Source: a virus
Direction: 5' to 3' (one strand)
DNA length: 5,477 bases
IMG/VR virus record: IMGVR_UViG_3300045988_096731
Span: 1 to 5,477 of that record
The notes beneath the pieces are model-generated. The model had not been told where the DNA came from and made no database searches. It was given only the letters and a program-made list of their open reading frames with translations. Shown here piece by piece: positions 259 through 5,477 of this stretch. The stretch's first letter is position 1. Each line of letters begins with the position of its first letter. The position numbers and the translations under genes are program-made.

Positions 259-1176
259 ATGCCATGTTATCATCCCATTCCGATGTGGTATAGTAAGGAT
301 GTGAATAAAGAAACCGGTAAACGCTCTTTGACGGCGAATTATGGTAATGCTTGGCGTCCGCTTGGTCGGCTTCCGGAGACGATTTACGTTCCGTGTGGTC
401 AGTGCGTTGGCTGCCGGCTTGAGTATAGCCGGCAGTGGGCCATGCGTTGTGTACATGAGTTTGAAATGGCCGGTCGTGTTGGATCCTTCCTCACTCTTAC
501 ATATAGTCCCGAACATTTGCCGGAAGATGGTAAAATTCATAAAGATGTTTTTCAAAAGTTCATGAAACGTCTTCGAAAACGGTTTGGCAGCGGTCTTCGC
601 TTTTTTGCTTGCGGTGAATACGGCCACAAGTTTAAAAGACCACACTATCATGCAGTTATTTTTGGCTTGCGATTCCCGGATTTAATGATCCATACAGTTA
701 AGCACGGTTTCCAGTATTATCGTAGTCCTACGCTGGAGAAGTTGTGGCCCTACGGATTCAGCCTGATCGGCAGCGTTACGTTTGAGTCGTGCGCTTATGT
801 CGCTCGCTATGTGATGAAAAAGCAAAAAGGTGATGATGTTGACGAATCTTTGCAGCCGTTTGTCTTGATGTCGCGTATGCCAGGTCTCGGTCATGATTGG
901 TACGAAAAGTATAAAAGCCAGGTTTATCCAAATGACTTTATTGTCGTCCGTGACGGTGTGACTTGTAAGCCGCCTGCGTATTATGATTCCTTGTTAGAAA
1001 AGGACGATCCTGATTTGTATGAGAAAGTCAAAAATGCCCGCCAAGACAAGTATCGTCGTGACGAGTCAATGACAACGGAAGAGTATGAAATTGCTCAGAT
1101 CCAAGAGCGGTTAAAAGCTCGCAAACTAACTAAACTTGTGCGCCAGCTGCATGACGATGTAGATATGTACGAGTAA
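259..1176 (+). CDS. VP4: Replication initiation protein VP4 (HUH rolling-circle endonuclease, phiX174 gpA family), 305 aa
   Basis: Typical gokushovirus VP4 features: N-terminal MPCYHPI, CGQCVGCRLEYSRQWAMRC, FLTLTY, and the HUH motif HYH (643..651, in RPHYHAVIFG). The two-tyrosine catalytic motif YVARY (Y codons at 796..798 and 808..810) compares with YVAKY in phiX174 A. GGAG at 245..248 lies 10 nt before the ATG. Confidence 0.95.
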   Translation: MPCYHPIPMWYSKDVNKETGKRSLTANYGNAWRPLGRLPETIYVPCGQCVGCRLEYSRQWAMRCVHEFEMAGRVGSFLTLTYSPEHLPEDGKIHKDVFQKFMKRLRKRFGSGLRFFACGEYGHKFKRPHYHAVIFGLRFPDLMIHTVKHGFQYYRSPTLEKLWPYGFSLIGSVTFESCAYVARYVMKKQKGDDVDESLQPFVLMSRMPGLGHDWYEKYKSQVYPNDFIVVRDGVTCKPPAYYDSLLEKDDPDLYEKVKNARQDKYRRDESMTTEEYEIAQIQERLKARKLTKLVRQLHDDVDMYE

Positions 1177-1398: not shown

Positions 1399-1677
1399 AT
1401 GCTTAAAGTTTATTCAATCTTGGATGATAAGGCACAGTGCTTTAATACGCCGTACTTTGCCCAGAATGACCTGGTTGCTAGCCGTTCTTTTAGTGATTTG
1501 TGTAATGATAGTCGGAGTCTTGTTAGTCAGCACCTCGGCGATTTCCACTTGTATTGTTTAGGTGAGTTTGATGATGAAAAAGGCATCCTTAAGCCGTATG
1601 ATATGCCTAATTTTGTTAGTCATGCCTTACAGTACGCTAATGTCGAAAGGAGCGATGCTGATGGAGATACGCTCTAG
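1399..1677 (+). CDS. VP5: Nonstructural protein VP5 (gokushovirus ORF5 family), 92 aa
   Basis: MLKVYSILDDKAQCFNTPYFAQNDLVASRSFSDL...DFHLYCLGEFDDEKG matches the remembered VP5 pattern (F-x-TPFF, A-x-R-x-FSD, L-x-x-G-x-FDD). AGGAG at 1384..1388 lies 10 nt before the ATG. The position between VP4 and VP3 is canonical. Confidence 0.85.
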   Translation: MLKVYSILDDKAQCFNTPYFAQNDLVASRSFSDLCNDSRSLVSQHLGDFHLYCLGEFDDEKGILKPYDMPNFVSHALQYANVERSDADGDTL

Positions 1678-2098
1678 ATATAATGCCGGCGTTCGGGAAG
1701 GTTGGAAATCTTCCGTTCTTTCTATGACGCAGCAGCAGTTTAAGGACGAAGCAGATATCAATTATATCGTTTCAATGTACGATTCTTCTGGCGTGATGCC
1801 TACGTTCCATGGTGATGGTCAGCCTGCGCAGCCTGTTTTCGGTGATTTTGCATCGCTGCCGGATAATGCGCAGGAGATGTACAATCGCATGATAGAGGCT
1901 AAAAATAACTTTGACAATTTGCCATTGGAGGTTCGCAAGCGTTTTAATTACGACCCTGCTGCTTTTTTGGAATTTGCTGACAATCCGGAAAATTTGGATG
2001 AGCTTGTGGCCATGGGTCTTGCTACAAAGACCGTTATTAAGTCTGATAATCATACGGAAAATACGGATAATAATGCAGGCGATAGTGCCAATGAATAA
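1661..2098 (+). CDS. VP3: Internal scaffolding protein VP3, 145 aa from the ATG at 1661 (the ORF is open from 1562)
   Basis: MEIRSRYNAG...FKDEADINYIV...LPLEVRKRFNYDPAAFLEFADNPENLDELVAMGLA matches the conserved gokushovirus VP3 core (FKDE-x-DIN, R-x-RF-x-x-DP-x-x-FLEF). The start was chosen because AAGGAG at 1647..1652 lies 8 nt upstream of the ATG at 1661. The ATG at 1655 is only 2 nt from the SD, and 1562 has no SD. The gene overlaps the VP5 3' end by 17 nt. Confidence 0.85.
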   Translation: MEIRSRYNAGVREGWKSSVLSMTQQQFKDEADINYIVSMYDSSGVMPTFHGDGQPAQPVFGDFASLPDNAQEMYNRMIEAKNNFDNLPLEVRKRFNYDPAAFLEFADNPENLDELVAMGLATKTVIKSDNHTENTDNNAGDSANE

Positions 2099-2170: not shown

Positions 2171-2205
2171 GTCGTACCAGTTCTACTTGATGTAACTGGT
2201 ACGAC
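2171..2205 (+). other. Perfect 12-bp stem-loop (GTCGTACCAGTT / AACTGGTACGAC) with the 11-nt loop CTACTTGATGT
   Basis: Each of the 12 pairs from 2171-2205 to 2182-2194 was checked individually, and G2170-T2206 adds a wobble pair. It lies in the VP3-VP1 intergenic region. No T-run follows, so it is not a classical terminator. Confidence 0.85.
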
Positions 2206-2208
2206 TGA

Positions 2209-2227
2209 CACCAATGTAAGATTGGTG
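2209..2227 (+). other. Second stem-loop, 7 bp (CACCAAT / ATTGGTG) with loop GTAAG
   Basis: 2209..2215 is the reverse complement of 2221..2227. It lies 3 nt after the first hairpin and 17 nt before the VP1 SD. Confidence 0.7.
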
Positions 2228-2259: not shown

Positions 2260-3972
2260 ATGTCAAAAAGAGCTACTCAGCACAGTTTTGCTATAAGCCC
2301 TCAGAATCAAGTTCCCCGGTCTTCTTTCAAGCGCTCACATACAGTAAAAACTACACTGGATGCAGGCCGGCTTGTTCCGTTTTATATTGATGAAGTTTAT
2401 CCTGGCGACACCTTTAACTGCAAGGCGACGCTTTTCGGTCGTATGGCCACGCCCATCGTTCCGGCTATGGATAATGCTTATATGGATACTTTTTTCTTTT
2501 TCGTTCCGTATCGTCTTCTTTGGAAGCACTGGAAGGAGTTTAACGGCGAAAATCCGCTTGCCGGCTATCAAAGTACAGAGTACGAAGTACCGCAGATGAC
2601 GGCCACCAATGCGCAGGTTCAGACGCTTTGGGACTATTTCGGTTTCCCGACCGATGTAAAAAATAAGCTTTCGGTTTCTGCTTTCCCTTTCAGAGCATAT
2701 TGGAAGATTTACAATGATTGGTTCCGTGACGAAAATCTTCAAAACGCTGTGTCTATCCAGACTGGCGCGCCGCTTTCTTCGACATCTTCTGAAGACGACG
2801 CTTATGGCGGCGATGCTACGCAGGATGCTACAACGGCACAGTGTTTCTATCGCGGCAAGCGTCATGATTATTTCACAAGTGCGCTTCCTTGGCCGCAAAA
2901 AGGTCCCGGCGTAGAATTACCTCTTGGTCAAACCGCTTCTGTTTCCGGCTCGCTTCCGGTTTCCGGCTTGCTTCCGGTTACTGGAGCTGTTACTATTAAT
3001 CGCCCTTCTGAGTGGACTGGCGATGGTCCCCGTCTTCTCTCACTTACTAACCATGATTCTGAACCTTCTGTTTCTGCTGTTTATACTACTGGTGGTATTC
3101 AATTTCAACCAAGAGCATATCTTGATATGTCTGTTGCAAATGGCACTGCTGATGCTTCTCATGCTACAGCTGATGCGTCAAAAGCGGTGGTTGATTTGTC
3201 AAGTGCAACGGCAATTACAATCAATAGCTTACGTTCTGCTTTTGCGCTTCAACGATTTTATGAAAAAGATGCTCGTGGTGGTACCCGATACACTGAAATT
3301 ATTCGCTCCCATTTCGGTATTATTTCGCCGGATGCTCGTTTACAGCGCAGCGAATACCTCGGCGGTGATTCAACCCCGATTATGTTCAATCCCGTGCAGC
3401 AGACTTCGTCTACCGACACTACTTCTCCGCAAGGTAACTTATCTGCGTATGCTTTGATGAGCACGCGCGTCCACGGATTTAATAAATCTTTTACAGAGCA
3501 CGGCATTGTGATTGGTTTGTGCAATATTCGCACTGATTTGAGTTATCAGCAAGGTATCAATAAGACATGGCTTAGACAAACTCGTGAAGAATTTTATTGG
3601 CCCACTTTTGCTCATCTCGGCGAACAGGCTATTCTTAACAAGGAGATTTACGCGCAGGGTACTGAGAGCGACAACCAGGTTTTTGGTTACCAAGAACGTT
3701 ATGCTGAATGCCGTTATCATCCTTCTATCATTACCGGCAAGATGCGCTCGACATATGCACAGAGTACGGATGTATGGCATTTTGCGCAAAAATTCGATGC
3801 GCTTCCCGCTCTCAATGGTGAATTTATCCAAGACCAGGCCAGCTACCAAGCTATTAAGCGTATTAGTGCGGTACAGTCTGAACCGCAGTTTTATCTTGAT
3901 GTGTATTTAGATTTAAAATGTGCTCGCCCGATGCCGGTTTACGGCGTCCCTGGCATGCTTGATCACTTCTAA
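2260..3972 (+). CDS. VP1: Major capsid protein VP1 (Microviridae F-type capsid), 570 aa
   Basis: Conserved gokushovirus VP1 blocks are present: LVPFYIDEVYPGDTF, TPIVPAMDNAYMDTFFFFVPYRLLW, FRAYWKIYNDWFRDENLQ, LRSAFALQRFYEKDARGGTRYTEIIRSHFG, and YGYQERYAE-type (here FGYQERYAECRY). AGGAG at 2245..2249 lies 10 nt before the ATG. A long variable insertion at roughly 2760..3200 corresponds to the three-fold protrusion loop. Confidence 0.97.
   Translation: MSKRATQHSFAISPQNQVPRSSFKRSHTVKTTLDAGRLVPFYIDEVYPGDTFNCKATLFGRMATPIVPAMDNAYMDTFFFFVPYRLLWKHWKEFNGENPLAGYQSTEYEVPQMTATNAQVQTLWDYFGFPTDVKNKLSVSAFPFRAYWKIYNDWFRDENLQNAVSIQTGAPLSSTSSEDDAYGGDATQDATTAQCFYRGKRHDYFTSALPWPQKGPGVELPLGQTASVSGSLPVSGLLPVTGAVTINRPSEWTGDGPRLLSLTNHDSEPSVSAVYTTGGIQFQPRAYLDMSVANGTADASHATADASKAVVDLSSATAITINSLRSAFALQRFYEKDARGGTRYTEIIRSHFGIISPDARLQRSEYLGGDSTPIMFNPVQQTSSTDTTSPQGNLSAYALMSTRVHGFNKSFTEHGIVIGLCNIRTDLSYQQGINKTWLRQTREEFYWPTFAHLGEQAILNKEIYAQGTESDNQVFGYQERYAECRYHPSIITGKMRSTYAQSTDVWHFAQKFDALPALNGEFIQDQASYQAIKRISAVQSEPQFYLDVYLDLKCARPMPVYGVPGMLDHF
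2941..2976 (+). repeat. Tandem 18-bp duplication (17/18 identical) inside the VP1 variable loop, encoding VSGSLP-VSGLLP
   Basis: gtttccggctcgcttccg (2941..2958) is followed directly by gtttccggcttgcttccg (2959..2976). Confidence 0.85.
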
Positions 3973-3988: not shown

Positions 3989-5032
3989 ATGAGTTGGTTA
4001 TCGTCGGTTGCCGGTGCTGCTCTTGGTATATGGTCGGGTAATAAATCGGCTAATGCCCAGGCTGCACTTTCGCGTGAGCAAATGCAGTGGCAATCGCAGG
4101 AAGCACAAAAAACTCGCGATTGGCAAGAAAAAATGTCTTCTACTGCTCACCAGCGTGAGATTGAAGATTTGCGTAAGGCTGGCTTGAATCCCATGCTTTC
4201 CGGCATGGGTGGCCAGGGCGCGTCTACACCTGCCGGTGCGACTGCTTCTTATTCTTCTAATGCTTATACTGGTTACGGTTCGGATGTTTCTAATGGTATC
4301 AATGCTATGACTGGTATGTATTCCGCTAAAACCAACCGAAAAATTCAGCAGCAGCAAGAAAAAAATTTGGAACAGCAAAATTTGAATCTTAGTGCAGATA
4401 CATATAAAAAGACGCAGGAAGGTCGTGCTGCATCGACTGAAGCAGATTATAAAAAGGCTATGTTAGAGACTCAGTTAGTGCAGCTACTCGCTAATGCGAA
4501 TAATTTACAGGCTAGTGCTGATTTTACAAAAGGCGTTGGCACTGCGAAAGCACAGTCTGAGATTGATAAATACAATGCTGAAACTCGGTATATTAGTGGC
4601 CCACAGACGGATGTCGCGAATGCGACGACTGCGAATCTAGGAGCGCAGACAAACCGGATTAATGCTTTACTGCCACATGAAATCGCGAAAATTGATAGCG
4701 ATATCGAAAAAAATGTACATGAAATTTTACGAATTGATTCTGAAACGAGTTTAAATCAGGTTAAAATGATGACTGAAAAGTATGTGCAAGGCGAACTTAG
4801 TGCCCGATCGCTTGTTGAGTATTTGCAAGCTAAAGGTCAGACTGAAGATAATGCGCTAAAGTTTGTAAATCGTGTGCGCGCTCAGATAGATCTAAAACAG
4901 TATCAAACTCAGAATCGCTATTCTGGTGTTACTCCGCAAGGCCCTTATGAACGTTTGGCCCGCATTCTTGGTAATGCGAAAGGTCTTGTTGATGCTTCCC
5001 CGTTTGGCCTCATCACGCAGATTCTTAAGTGA
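3989..5032 (+). CDS. VP2: Minor capsid / DNA pilot protein VP2, 347 aa
   Basis: The N-terminal region S-x-AHQREIEDLRKAGLNPML matches the hallmark VP2 motif (remembered as NTAYQR...AGLNPML). A Gly/Ala/Ser-rich segment and a long Q/N/K-rich helical region follow. AAGGAG ending at 3978 lies 10 nt before the ATG. The position after VP1 is canonical. Confidence 0.9.
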   Translation: MSWLSSVAGAALGIWSGNKSANAQAALSREQMQWQSQEAQKTRDWQEKMSSTAHQREIEDLRKAGLNPMLSGMGGQGASTPAGATASYSSNAYTGYGSDVSNGINAMTGMYSAKTNRKIQQQQEKNLEQQNLNLSADTYKKTQEGRAASTEADYKKAMLETQLVQLLANANNLQASADFTKGVGTAKAQSEIDKYNAETRYISGPQTDVANATTANLGAQTNRINALLPHEIAKIDSDIEKNVHEILRIDSETSLNQVKMMTEKYVQGELSARSLVEYLQAKGQTEDNALKFVNRVRAQIDLKQYQTQNRYSGVTPQGPYERLARILGNAKGLVDASPFGLITQILK

Positions 5033-5127: not shown

Positions 5128-5156
5128 TTGACATTTTATTAGATATCTGTTAGAAT
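5128..5156 (+). promoter_or_regulatory. Near-consensus sigma70-type promoter: TTGACA, 17-nt spacer, TAGAAT with extended -10 TG
   Basis: TTGACA at 5128..5133, a 17-nt spacer at 5134..5150, and TAGAAT at 5151..5156 preceded by TGT (TGnTAGAAT). It lies in the 143-nt VP2-downstream intergenic region, 20 nt upstream of the ATG at 5176. Confidence 0.7.
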
Positions 5157-5175: not shown

Positions 5176-5340
5176 ATGAGAAAAACTCGTAGTATTTATT
5201 GTTCAGATGATGAGTACAAGCATCTGAAGATCGCATTACGTTTTATGCGCGTTTTTGATGCGCTGTCGGTTGATGACTTGTCTGATGAGCAGCGGTCTAA
5301 GTATTTCCTGGAAATCATAAAAGGAGATGATGAAGAATGA
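5176..5340 (+). CDS. Hypothetical 54-aa protein (MRKTRSIYCSDDEYKHLKIALRFMRVFDALSVDDLSDEQRSKYFLEIIKGDDEE); possible small DNA-binding (ribbon-helix-helix-like) regulator
   Basis: Hand translation gives ATG at 5176 and TGA at 5338..5340. A GAGGTGAT Shine-Dalgarno at 5164..5171 lies just upstream. The ORF starts 20 nt after a strong promoter and its stop overlaps the next ATG (ATGA). It is too short to appear in the supplied ORF track. The basic N-terminus, putative strand-helix-helix pattern and acidic tail are only suggestive of function. Confidence 0.6.
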   Translation: MRKTRSIYCSDDEYKHLKIALRFMRVFDALSVDDLSDEQRSKYFLEIIKGDDEE

Positions 5341-5432
5341 AAGTTGGTACTCCGGTCGCGTTGTTTTGTTGGCTTGTACTAGCCATTTTAGTTGTCTCCT
5401 TAGTGATTAGTATATTGGATGTTTTTTTATAA
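5337..5432 (+). CDS. Hypothetical 31-aa single-pass membrane peptide (MKVGTPVALFCWLVLAILVVSLVISILDVFL)
   Basis: The ATG at 5337 overlaps the upstream stop (ATGA). AAGGAG at 5321..5326 lies exactly 10 nt before the ATG, the same spacing as the confirmed genes. An uninterrupted hydrophobic core of about 20 residues is present. The stop TAA is embedded in the SD (TAAGGAG) of the next gene. Confidence 0.55.
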   Translation: MKVGTPVALFCWLVLAILVVSLVISILDVFL

Positions 5433-5477
5433 GGAGTTGATGTTGTATGAAACGACAAAAAATGAGTAAAAAAAAGA
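5337..5477. repeat. Terminal redundancy, right copy (identical to 1..141)
   Basis: Same as the left copy. It contains a full second copy of the 31-aa ORF (5337..5432) and the first 31 nt of the basic-protein gene (5447..5477, truncated by the window end). Confidence 0.95.

Follow-up and report, generated by a model that had tools for sequence, protein, structure and literature searches.

The window analyzed here, the whole stretch of 5477 nt, consists of a 5336-nt circle and a 141-nt terminal overlap (1-141 = 5337-5477). All genes are located on the + strand, and the nearest GenBank records are Gokushovirinae from pig faeces, with 84-87% identity. Coordinates of the genes and of the elements found between VP3 and VP1 are collected in Table 1. 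Relatives with 84-87% genome identity share about 95% identity over this VP3-VP1 intergenic region (2099-2259), which probably contains further cis elements; a 7-bp inverted repeat, CTGAAAA...TTTTCAG (2136-2170), lies directly upstream of hairpin I. The other gaps also carry recognizable features. The best sigma-70-like promoter match of the genome (TTGACA-17-TAGAAT, 11/12) is found after VP2 (5128-5156), in an intergenic region that also holds a terminator-like hairpin with a T-run (34-49 = 5370-5385), and the VP4-VP5 gap (1177-1398) contains an imperfect 26-nt inverted repeat at 1223-1295.

Table 1. Genes and intergenic elements of the window, with positions counted from its first nucleotide.
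Feature	Position	Strand	Remarks
VP4/Rep	259-1176	+	Pfam PF23343, E = 5e-22
VP5	1399-1677	+	
VP3 scaffold	1562-2098	+	Chlamy_scaf
Hairpin I, 5' arm GTCGTACCAGTT	2171-2182	+	Sequence variable in relatives, covaries with 3' arm
Hairpin I, loop CTACTTGATGT	2183-2193	+	11 nt, core ACTTGAT at 2185-2191
Hairpin I, 3' arm AACTGGTACGAC	2194-2205	+	Occupies the spacer position of the phiX174 30-nt origin
Conserved 3' box TGACACCAA	2206-2214	+	GAC begins exactly 15 nt after CTTGAT
Hairpin II, CACCAAT gtaag ATTGGTG	2209-2227	+	5' arm includes part of the box
VP1 capsid	2260-3972	+	Phage_F
VP2-like ORF	3989-5032	+	

A preliminary description of this DNA reported a perfect 12-bp hairpin on the coding strand between VP3 and VP1, with the heptamer ACTTGAT in an 11-nt loop. 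The sequence agrees on every point: the two arms of hairpin I are fully complementary, the loop reads as described with the heptamer in its place, and VP3 ends at 2098 while VP1 starts at 2260. The hairpin had also been called the most stable structure of the genome, and it does occupy the top-ranking 60-nt segment (-18.6 kcal/mol, with -13.7 kcal/mol at the second-ranking distinct site). No other perfect stem of the genome is as long, the runner-up having 9 bp at 411-435. When the 81-nt hairpin region is folded as single-stranded DNA it reaches -19.3 kcal/mol (z = -5.4), and 0 of 200 shuffled sequences fold as well. The extra copies of the loop sequence mentioned in the same description, CTTGATGT (864 and 3895) and CTTGATAT (3121), are all present, and further CTTGAT sites occur at 3958 and 5045 (+) and at 2306 (-). 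With the copy in the loop, the total is seven vs. 3.5 +/- 1.9 expected, so that the hexamer by itself is unremarkable and not significantly enriched. The composite motif ACTTGAT-N15-GAC has a single match in the window, at 2185-2209 (0.02 expected).

The hairpin is genuine, conserved throughout the gokushovirus group and not a product of chance. A blastn search with the intergenic region alone (2140-2262) matched 104 phage records, from pigs, rodents, lemurs, humans, honeybees, Ciona, blackfly, plant, springs and the sea, and in most of them the match consists of window positions 2171-2214 only. In a whole-genome search, two otherwise unalignable genomes align solely at the hairpin region, with 94% identity. 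The stem sequences of the relatives are very diverse (e.g., GTCGTACCAGTT, ACACACAGTT, GTGGGCACAGTTAAC, CACCGGAACCAGTTAC, GTCACCTACGCATATTACG); in the elements inspected from the similarity searches, CTTGAT is constant in the loop and the stem is followed by TGACACC. To avoid selection on the hairpin, an unbiased sample of 75 loci was picked by VP1 homology alone (48-55% identity), and 57 of these contain CTTGAT-N14/15-TGAC. The 61 distinct instances of the motif in the VP1-selected loci lie without exception on the coding strand, and 58 are enclosed by a perfect stem of 7-20 bp, as compared with 2 of the 223 other CTTGAT sites of the same loci. Most of the loci that lack the exact motif display the same architecture with a variant loop (CTTGTT, CTTGTA, CTTGTC or CTAGAT), and those with neither motif nor variant are mostly partial contigs. 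Scans of viral and genome collections returned matches that, among those listed, are mostly due to chance and were used as negative controls: chance matches of the linear motif in bacterial genomes have a stem in 3 of the 118 cases among the matches listed, one of them seemingly real, and those in large viral contigs, again among the matches listed, are almost always stemless. The position of the element is equally constant, since it directly follows VP3 in 66 of 67 loci regardless of the next gene. Thirty loci resemble the window in having VP1 next, and 36 resemble Chlamydia phage Chp2 in having VP4.

The preliminary description had named stem covariation and loop conservation in relatives as a check on the hairpin, and both are evident. 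Covariation was assessed in a gapless 41-nt alignment of 17 elements of one geometry; aligning hairpin and tails with MAFFT was unsuitable for pair counting, because the classes with 14- and 15-nt spacing introduce a one-sided gap. All 16 stem pairs show two-sided changes in the 17-element alignment. Paired cells amount to 88%, vs. 57% after shuffling and 29-42% after a shift of the partners by 1-3 columns. Each of the nine inner pairs is intact in every aligned element and occurs as 2-4 pair types, although these inner pairs are partly selected because the elements were chosen for at least 7 perfect pairs; the outer pairs are free of that selection, and the counts from the VP1-selected loci are independent of this alignment. 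A covariance model built from the 17 elements detects the window element at 35 bits, and in every case the + strand scores higher than its palindromic echo.

Conservation of the sequence, as opposed to the pairing, is confined to the loop and to the DNA that follows it. The logo of 58 unique elements from the capsid-selected relatives reads taCTTGATGTAAcTG...agTGACACca, in which CTTG and TGAC are invariant and the base after CTTG is A or T. Loop core and 3' TGACACC box are thus nearly invariant among relatives. Of 84 unique elements, 73 have TGAC at one of two distances from CTTGAT, 14 nt (55 elements) or 15 nt (18 elements). Given this nearly invariant core and box and their fixed spacing, a linear motif of some 30 nt forms the conserved unit, and its spacer is merely complemented by a 5' arm that is free in sequence. 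The start of the 3' arm, GTAACTG (2192-2198), is itself fairly conserved. The box, which was absent from the preliminary description, stands at a distance from the core that reproduces the phiX174 origin, and TGACACCAA is a candidate Rep binding ("key") sequence. It also takes part in a second stem. Hairpin II is kept with different letters in a close relative (L012), and a stem of at least 6 bp involving the box is found in 31 of 96 unique elements, vs. about 2.4% of shuffled tails; GACACC aaa GGTGTC is another example. Hairpin II is therefore a recurrent, but not universal, partner of hairpin I. Tandem iteron copies were looked for beside the stem and none was found; the TGACACC box is single, and in about 32% of elements it forms an inverted repeat.

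The best characterized counterpart is the 30-nt viral-strand origin of phiX174 and the Bullavirinae, CAACTTG^ATATTAATAACACTATAGACCAC, which is cut by the gene A protein and shares the core ACTTGAT with the window. The likeness had been noted in the preliminary description, and the phiX174 origin sequence given there proves to be correct (CAACTTGATATTAATAACACTATAGACCAC, with the GenBank rep_origin at 4306). Over the cleavage core, CAACTTG^ATA in phiX174, the window reads CTACTTGATG (8/10 identical, with ACTTGAT exact). The layout is also the same, with ACTTG^AT, 15 nt and GACCAC in phiX174 and ACTTGAT, 15 nt and GACACC in the window. In the phiX174 genome (0.01 matches expected), ACTTGAT-N15-GAC is found once, at 4301-4325, exactly on the annotated origin; as the heptamer was the starting point of the comparison, the independent information is GAC at +15 alone, roughly 1 in 64. 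Cleavage and religation of phiX174 take place at G4305/A4306 within the 30-nt ori+, and synonymous changes from Q107 to D115 of the overlapping coding sequence are harmful (bioRxiv 10.64898/2026.07.25.740675). By codon arithmetic these residues extend from CAA at 4299 through GAC at 4323-4325. The phiX initiator contacts separate bind and nick sites of the origin (PMC5714925). Location on the viral strand is likewise common to the phiX174 origin and the gokushovirus element. In this family the packaged strand is the coding-sense strand.

The two elements nonetheless differ in construction. The spacer has a mean A+T content of 54% across the gokushovirus relatives, whereas that of phiX174 reaches 87%. 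The phiX174 core has no comparable enclosing stem (2 bp at best), while the core of the window lies inside the loop of a 12-bp hairpin. The phiX174 origin is part of gene A; the gokushovirus element is intergenic and follows VP3. The box differs too, with GACACC in the window and GACCAC in phiX174. Two features of the phiX174 origin are thus missing here, namely an A+T-rich spacer and a location within the Rep gene. The window element appears to be homologous to the 30-nt phiX174 origin but built differently.

The presumed enzyme acting on the hairpin loop is VP4, the rolling-circle Rep. It contains the motif FLTLTY, an HUH motif (H129-Y130-H131) and the segment AYVARYVMKK with Y180 and Y184. 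Two catalytic tyrosines are a signature of Microviridae Reps (PMC3091885), and those of phiX174 are Tyr343 and Tyr347 (bioRxiv 10.64898/2026.07.25.740675). VP4 has YVARYVMKK where gpA has YVAKYVNKK (common pattern YVA[KR]YV.KK) and HYH where gpA has HFH, and BLASTP aligns the two proteins over the HUH region (E = 1e-5). In nearly all relatives with a recognizable Rep, this protein retains RPH[YF]H together with both tyrosines, the latter in an AYVARY..KK-like motif. Among these relatives, variant loops such as CTTGTT show no visible association with changes in the tyrosine or HUH motifs of Rep.

Named phages display the same arrangement to different degrees. In Chp2 the element (2902-2943) consists of a 14-bp stem with the loop TCTACTTGAT, followed by GGTGATAGC. 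SpV4 has a weak version, with a stem of only 5-6 bp. In phiMH2K (L150) a CTTGAT element and a match to the covariance model were looked for and neither was found, but a hairpin GGGTTCGG aagatatttctc CCGAAGCCC is present at 2903-2945 and is followed by TTGACAC. Because the architecture is the same and the loop lacks CTTGAT, this suggests a diverged nick specificity in Bdellomicrovirus.

Origins in which an HUH Rep acts on a stem-loop include the nonanucleotide loops of circoviruses, geminiviruses and nanoviruses, IR-II of pT181 and the origin of pMV158. They share two properties with the window: the nick site (predicted here) lies in the loop of a conserved hairpin whose stem is variable in sequence, and the Rep-binding sequence (the candidate box here) adjoins the stem. 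Such origins have been described in general terms (10.1101/2025.07.14.664782). The loop carries CTTGAT in the window, as opposed to TAATATTAC-type sequences in circovirus/geminivirus/nanovirus-style origins, and the Rep is of the two-tyrosine Microviridae type rather than the single-tyrosine CRESS type. Moreover, the window has no tandem iterons, its box being single or half of a small inverted repeat. The double-strand origins of the pC194/pUB110 plasmid family are nicked in CTTG^ATA by an HUH-type initiator. Both the nick-site core CTTGAT(A) and the HUH-type initiator are common to these plasmids and the window, but the plasmid Reps belong to another Pfam family (Rep_1); the comparison covers the core and the type of initiator. 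Among other microviruses, conserved intergenic hairpins with compensatory stem changes and conserved loops have been described for reekeekee- and roodoodoo-microviruses; in the available part of that study they belong to other clades and other positions (Cap-Rep or beside Rep) and are tentatively tied to minus-strand initiation, not to the phiX cleavage site (PMC9865509).

Taken together, positions 2171-2214 are best read as a viral-strand (+) rolling-circle origin of the phiX type, in which the spacer has become a hairpin arm and the nick site lies in the loop, with a probability of about 0.72. This was also the main proposal of the preliminary description, and it is supported by conservation, covariation and strand specificity, by the fixed CTTGAT-to-box spacing, which is that of phiX174, by the match to the mapped phiX origin and by the conserved Rep motifs. 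From the phiX174 cleavage site, the predicted Rep nick is G2189/A2190. As the spacer pairs with an upstream complement to form a hairpin of 7-20 bp, CTTGAT is left in the loop. On the supercoiled replicative form the inverted repeat may extrude as a cruciform, or it may fold in displaced single strands, and either event would make the core single-stranded. VP4 would then dock on the TGACACC box, which is half of a second small inverted repeat in about one third of the genomes, and Y180 or Y184 would cut G2189/A2190 and remain joined to the 5' end, with the 3'-OH priming strand displacement synthesis. After one round, the hairpin would form again and expose the site to the second tyrosine, whose strand transfer would release a circular viral strand for packaging. 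The same cleavage core would thus be exposed in two ways, by melting of an A+T-rich spacer in phiX174 and by a cruciform or hairpin in gokushoviruses. Some observations point the other way, namely the phiMH2K loop without CTTGAT, the 5-6 bp stem of SpV4 and one locus (L027) in which the element is on the opposite strand. The constant position directly after VP3, unexplained by an origin role, also counts against this reading.

Complementary-strand origins are known from the intergenic hairpins of phiX174 and G4 and from the single-strand origins of plasmids. Hairpin I could accordingly be a minus origin only, at which host primase, PriA or RNA polymerase primes the conversion of single-stranded DNA to the replicative form. 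A stable, strand-specific hairpin of single-stranded DNA in the main intergenic region would suit this role, which has been proposed, with no certainty in the available part of the study, for the conserved hairpins of other small microviruses (PMC9865509). However, loop and box are conserved across Chp2 and gut/faecal, Ciona, honeybee, marine and spring phages, and a host-specific priming signal should vary more among such diverse hosts. Nor would a priming site have any reason to contain the phiX Rep cleavage site with a GAC box at the phiX spacing. Minus-strand priming as the only function is therefore unlikely, but it may be an additional role of the hairpin. An action on the packaged DNA is less probable still: the hairpin would serve as a signal for packaging or DNA condensation, and a structural or DNA-binding protein (VP5 or J-like) would bind it instead of Rep cutting it. 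It is indeed a conserved, strand-specific structure of single-stranded DNA that occurs once per genome, and the older literature holds that the phiX origin is also required for packaging. Since that dependence works through the Rep-origin complex, packaging would be an added role more than a rival, and the identity with the phiX cleavage core and the conserved two-tyrosine Rep would be left unexplained.

A function in RNA is about as improbable. Because the element lies directly downstream of VP3 in nearly every locus (66/67), whichever gene is next, it could be a terminator or 3' stabilizer of the mRNA ending in VP3, or else a 5' element of the following mRNA. Yet there is no T-run after the stem, which is followed by TGACACCAAT in the window and by TGACACC in relatives, and a terminator needs neither a conserved loop sequence nor a box at a fixed distance. 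Scans of the window for consensus terminators and promoters did not flag the hairpin site, and the Rfam 15 covariance models gave no match there at E <= 1. The preliminary description had kept an mRNA element for the capsid transcript as an alternative; this is weakened by the 36 of 67 relatives in which VP4, not VP1, is downstream, and with VP1 next in only 30 loci the element is no leader of the capsid transcript. Integration at dif-like sites is known for some microviruses (PMC3091885), and an attachment or dif-like site for XerCD-mediated lysogeny would be the remaining reading, although it is hardly credible. Two integrated gokushoviruses are flanked by bacterial genes, L240 in a Sutterella contig (SDF symporter and AAA-ATPase genes) and L229 in a Ca. 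Enterousia contig (genes for ArgRS and an FtsJ-like methyltransferase). Both have their junction in the VP4-VP5 gap and keep the hairpin intact in the interior. Furthermore, the stem sequence is unconserved, whereas Xer arms are expected to be conserved. A separate stretch at 2223-2250 bears a weak resemblance to the E. coli dif sequence (17/28); it was rejected as a candidate, being variable among close relatives, overlapping the VP1 Shine-Dalgarno sequence and lying away from the prophage junctions.

If hairpin I is the viral-strand origin, the presentation of a phiX-type origin in a hairpin would be new for gokushoviruses, as far as the searchable literature goes: neither a gokushovirus replication origin nor this hairpin was found described there, subscription papers lying outside it, and an earlier mention is possible. 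Gokushoviruses are among the ssDNA phages most frequently recovered in gut, marine and freshwater viromes, and with an element of about 45 nt defined and a nick dinucleotide predicted, the question of their origin becomes directly testable. The element could serve as a natural zero point in the annotation of thousands of metagenomic genomes, its covariance model as a compact marker for gokushovirus DNA and prophages, and the element itself as a starting point for minimal ssDNA-producing vectors.

Two circular gene orders are found among gokushoviruses, hairpin-VP1-VP2-VP4-VP5-VP3 (30 loci) and hairpin-VP4-VP5-VP1-VP2-VP3 (36 loci). As the hairpin follows VP3 in both, one breakpoint of the module swap is at its 3' side. 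A further copy occurs in a Woeseiaceae MAG (L281, 440-500, on a 2.9-Mb contig), as a 13-bp perfect hairpin with the loop CCCTACTTGATA followed by TGACACC. It comes directly after an ORF whose translation reads as an AlpA-like HTH protein, with GmrSD and HEPN defence genes downstream; microvirus genes were not detected in the 8 kb of sequence available for this copy, the upstream side being cut off. As a tentative extension, rather doubtful at present, hairpin-CTTGAT-N15-GACACC may be the ancestral, portable origin of the phiX/gokushovirus Rep lineage, used also by non-viral DNA (Woeseiaceae), with its 3' side as a recombination breakpoint. Such an ancestral module would connect, in mechanism, the "linear" origin of phiX with the stem-loop origins of other HUH replicons, and a breakpoint at its 3' side would explain the two gene orders as a hairpin-anchored module swap.

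Unusual arrangements of the element occur in two of the loci. L220 (4224-4296) carries a tandem pair of hairpin and box (GCAGATTAT cttcttgtat ATAATCTGC taggTGAC), 45 nt apart. In L027 (320-440) the element is on one strand and the genes VP1 and VP4 are on the other, and a low-complexity (CACG)n run comes after the element. This arrangement represents either a true inversion of the origin or an amplification or assembly chimera at the hairpin. Within the window itself, the second most stable hairpin of the genome is located inside VP4 (411-435, CTGCCGGCT tgagtat AGCCGGCAG) and reads GGCTTGAGTAT, resembling the origin loop. Distant relatives have lost it; a minus-strand origin or a secondary site for Rep would be possible functions. 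In close relatives it shows two different compensatory double changes, CTGTCGGCT/AGCCGACAG and TTGCCGGCT/AGCCGGCAA, by which the pairing is kept.
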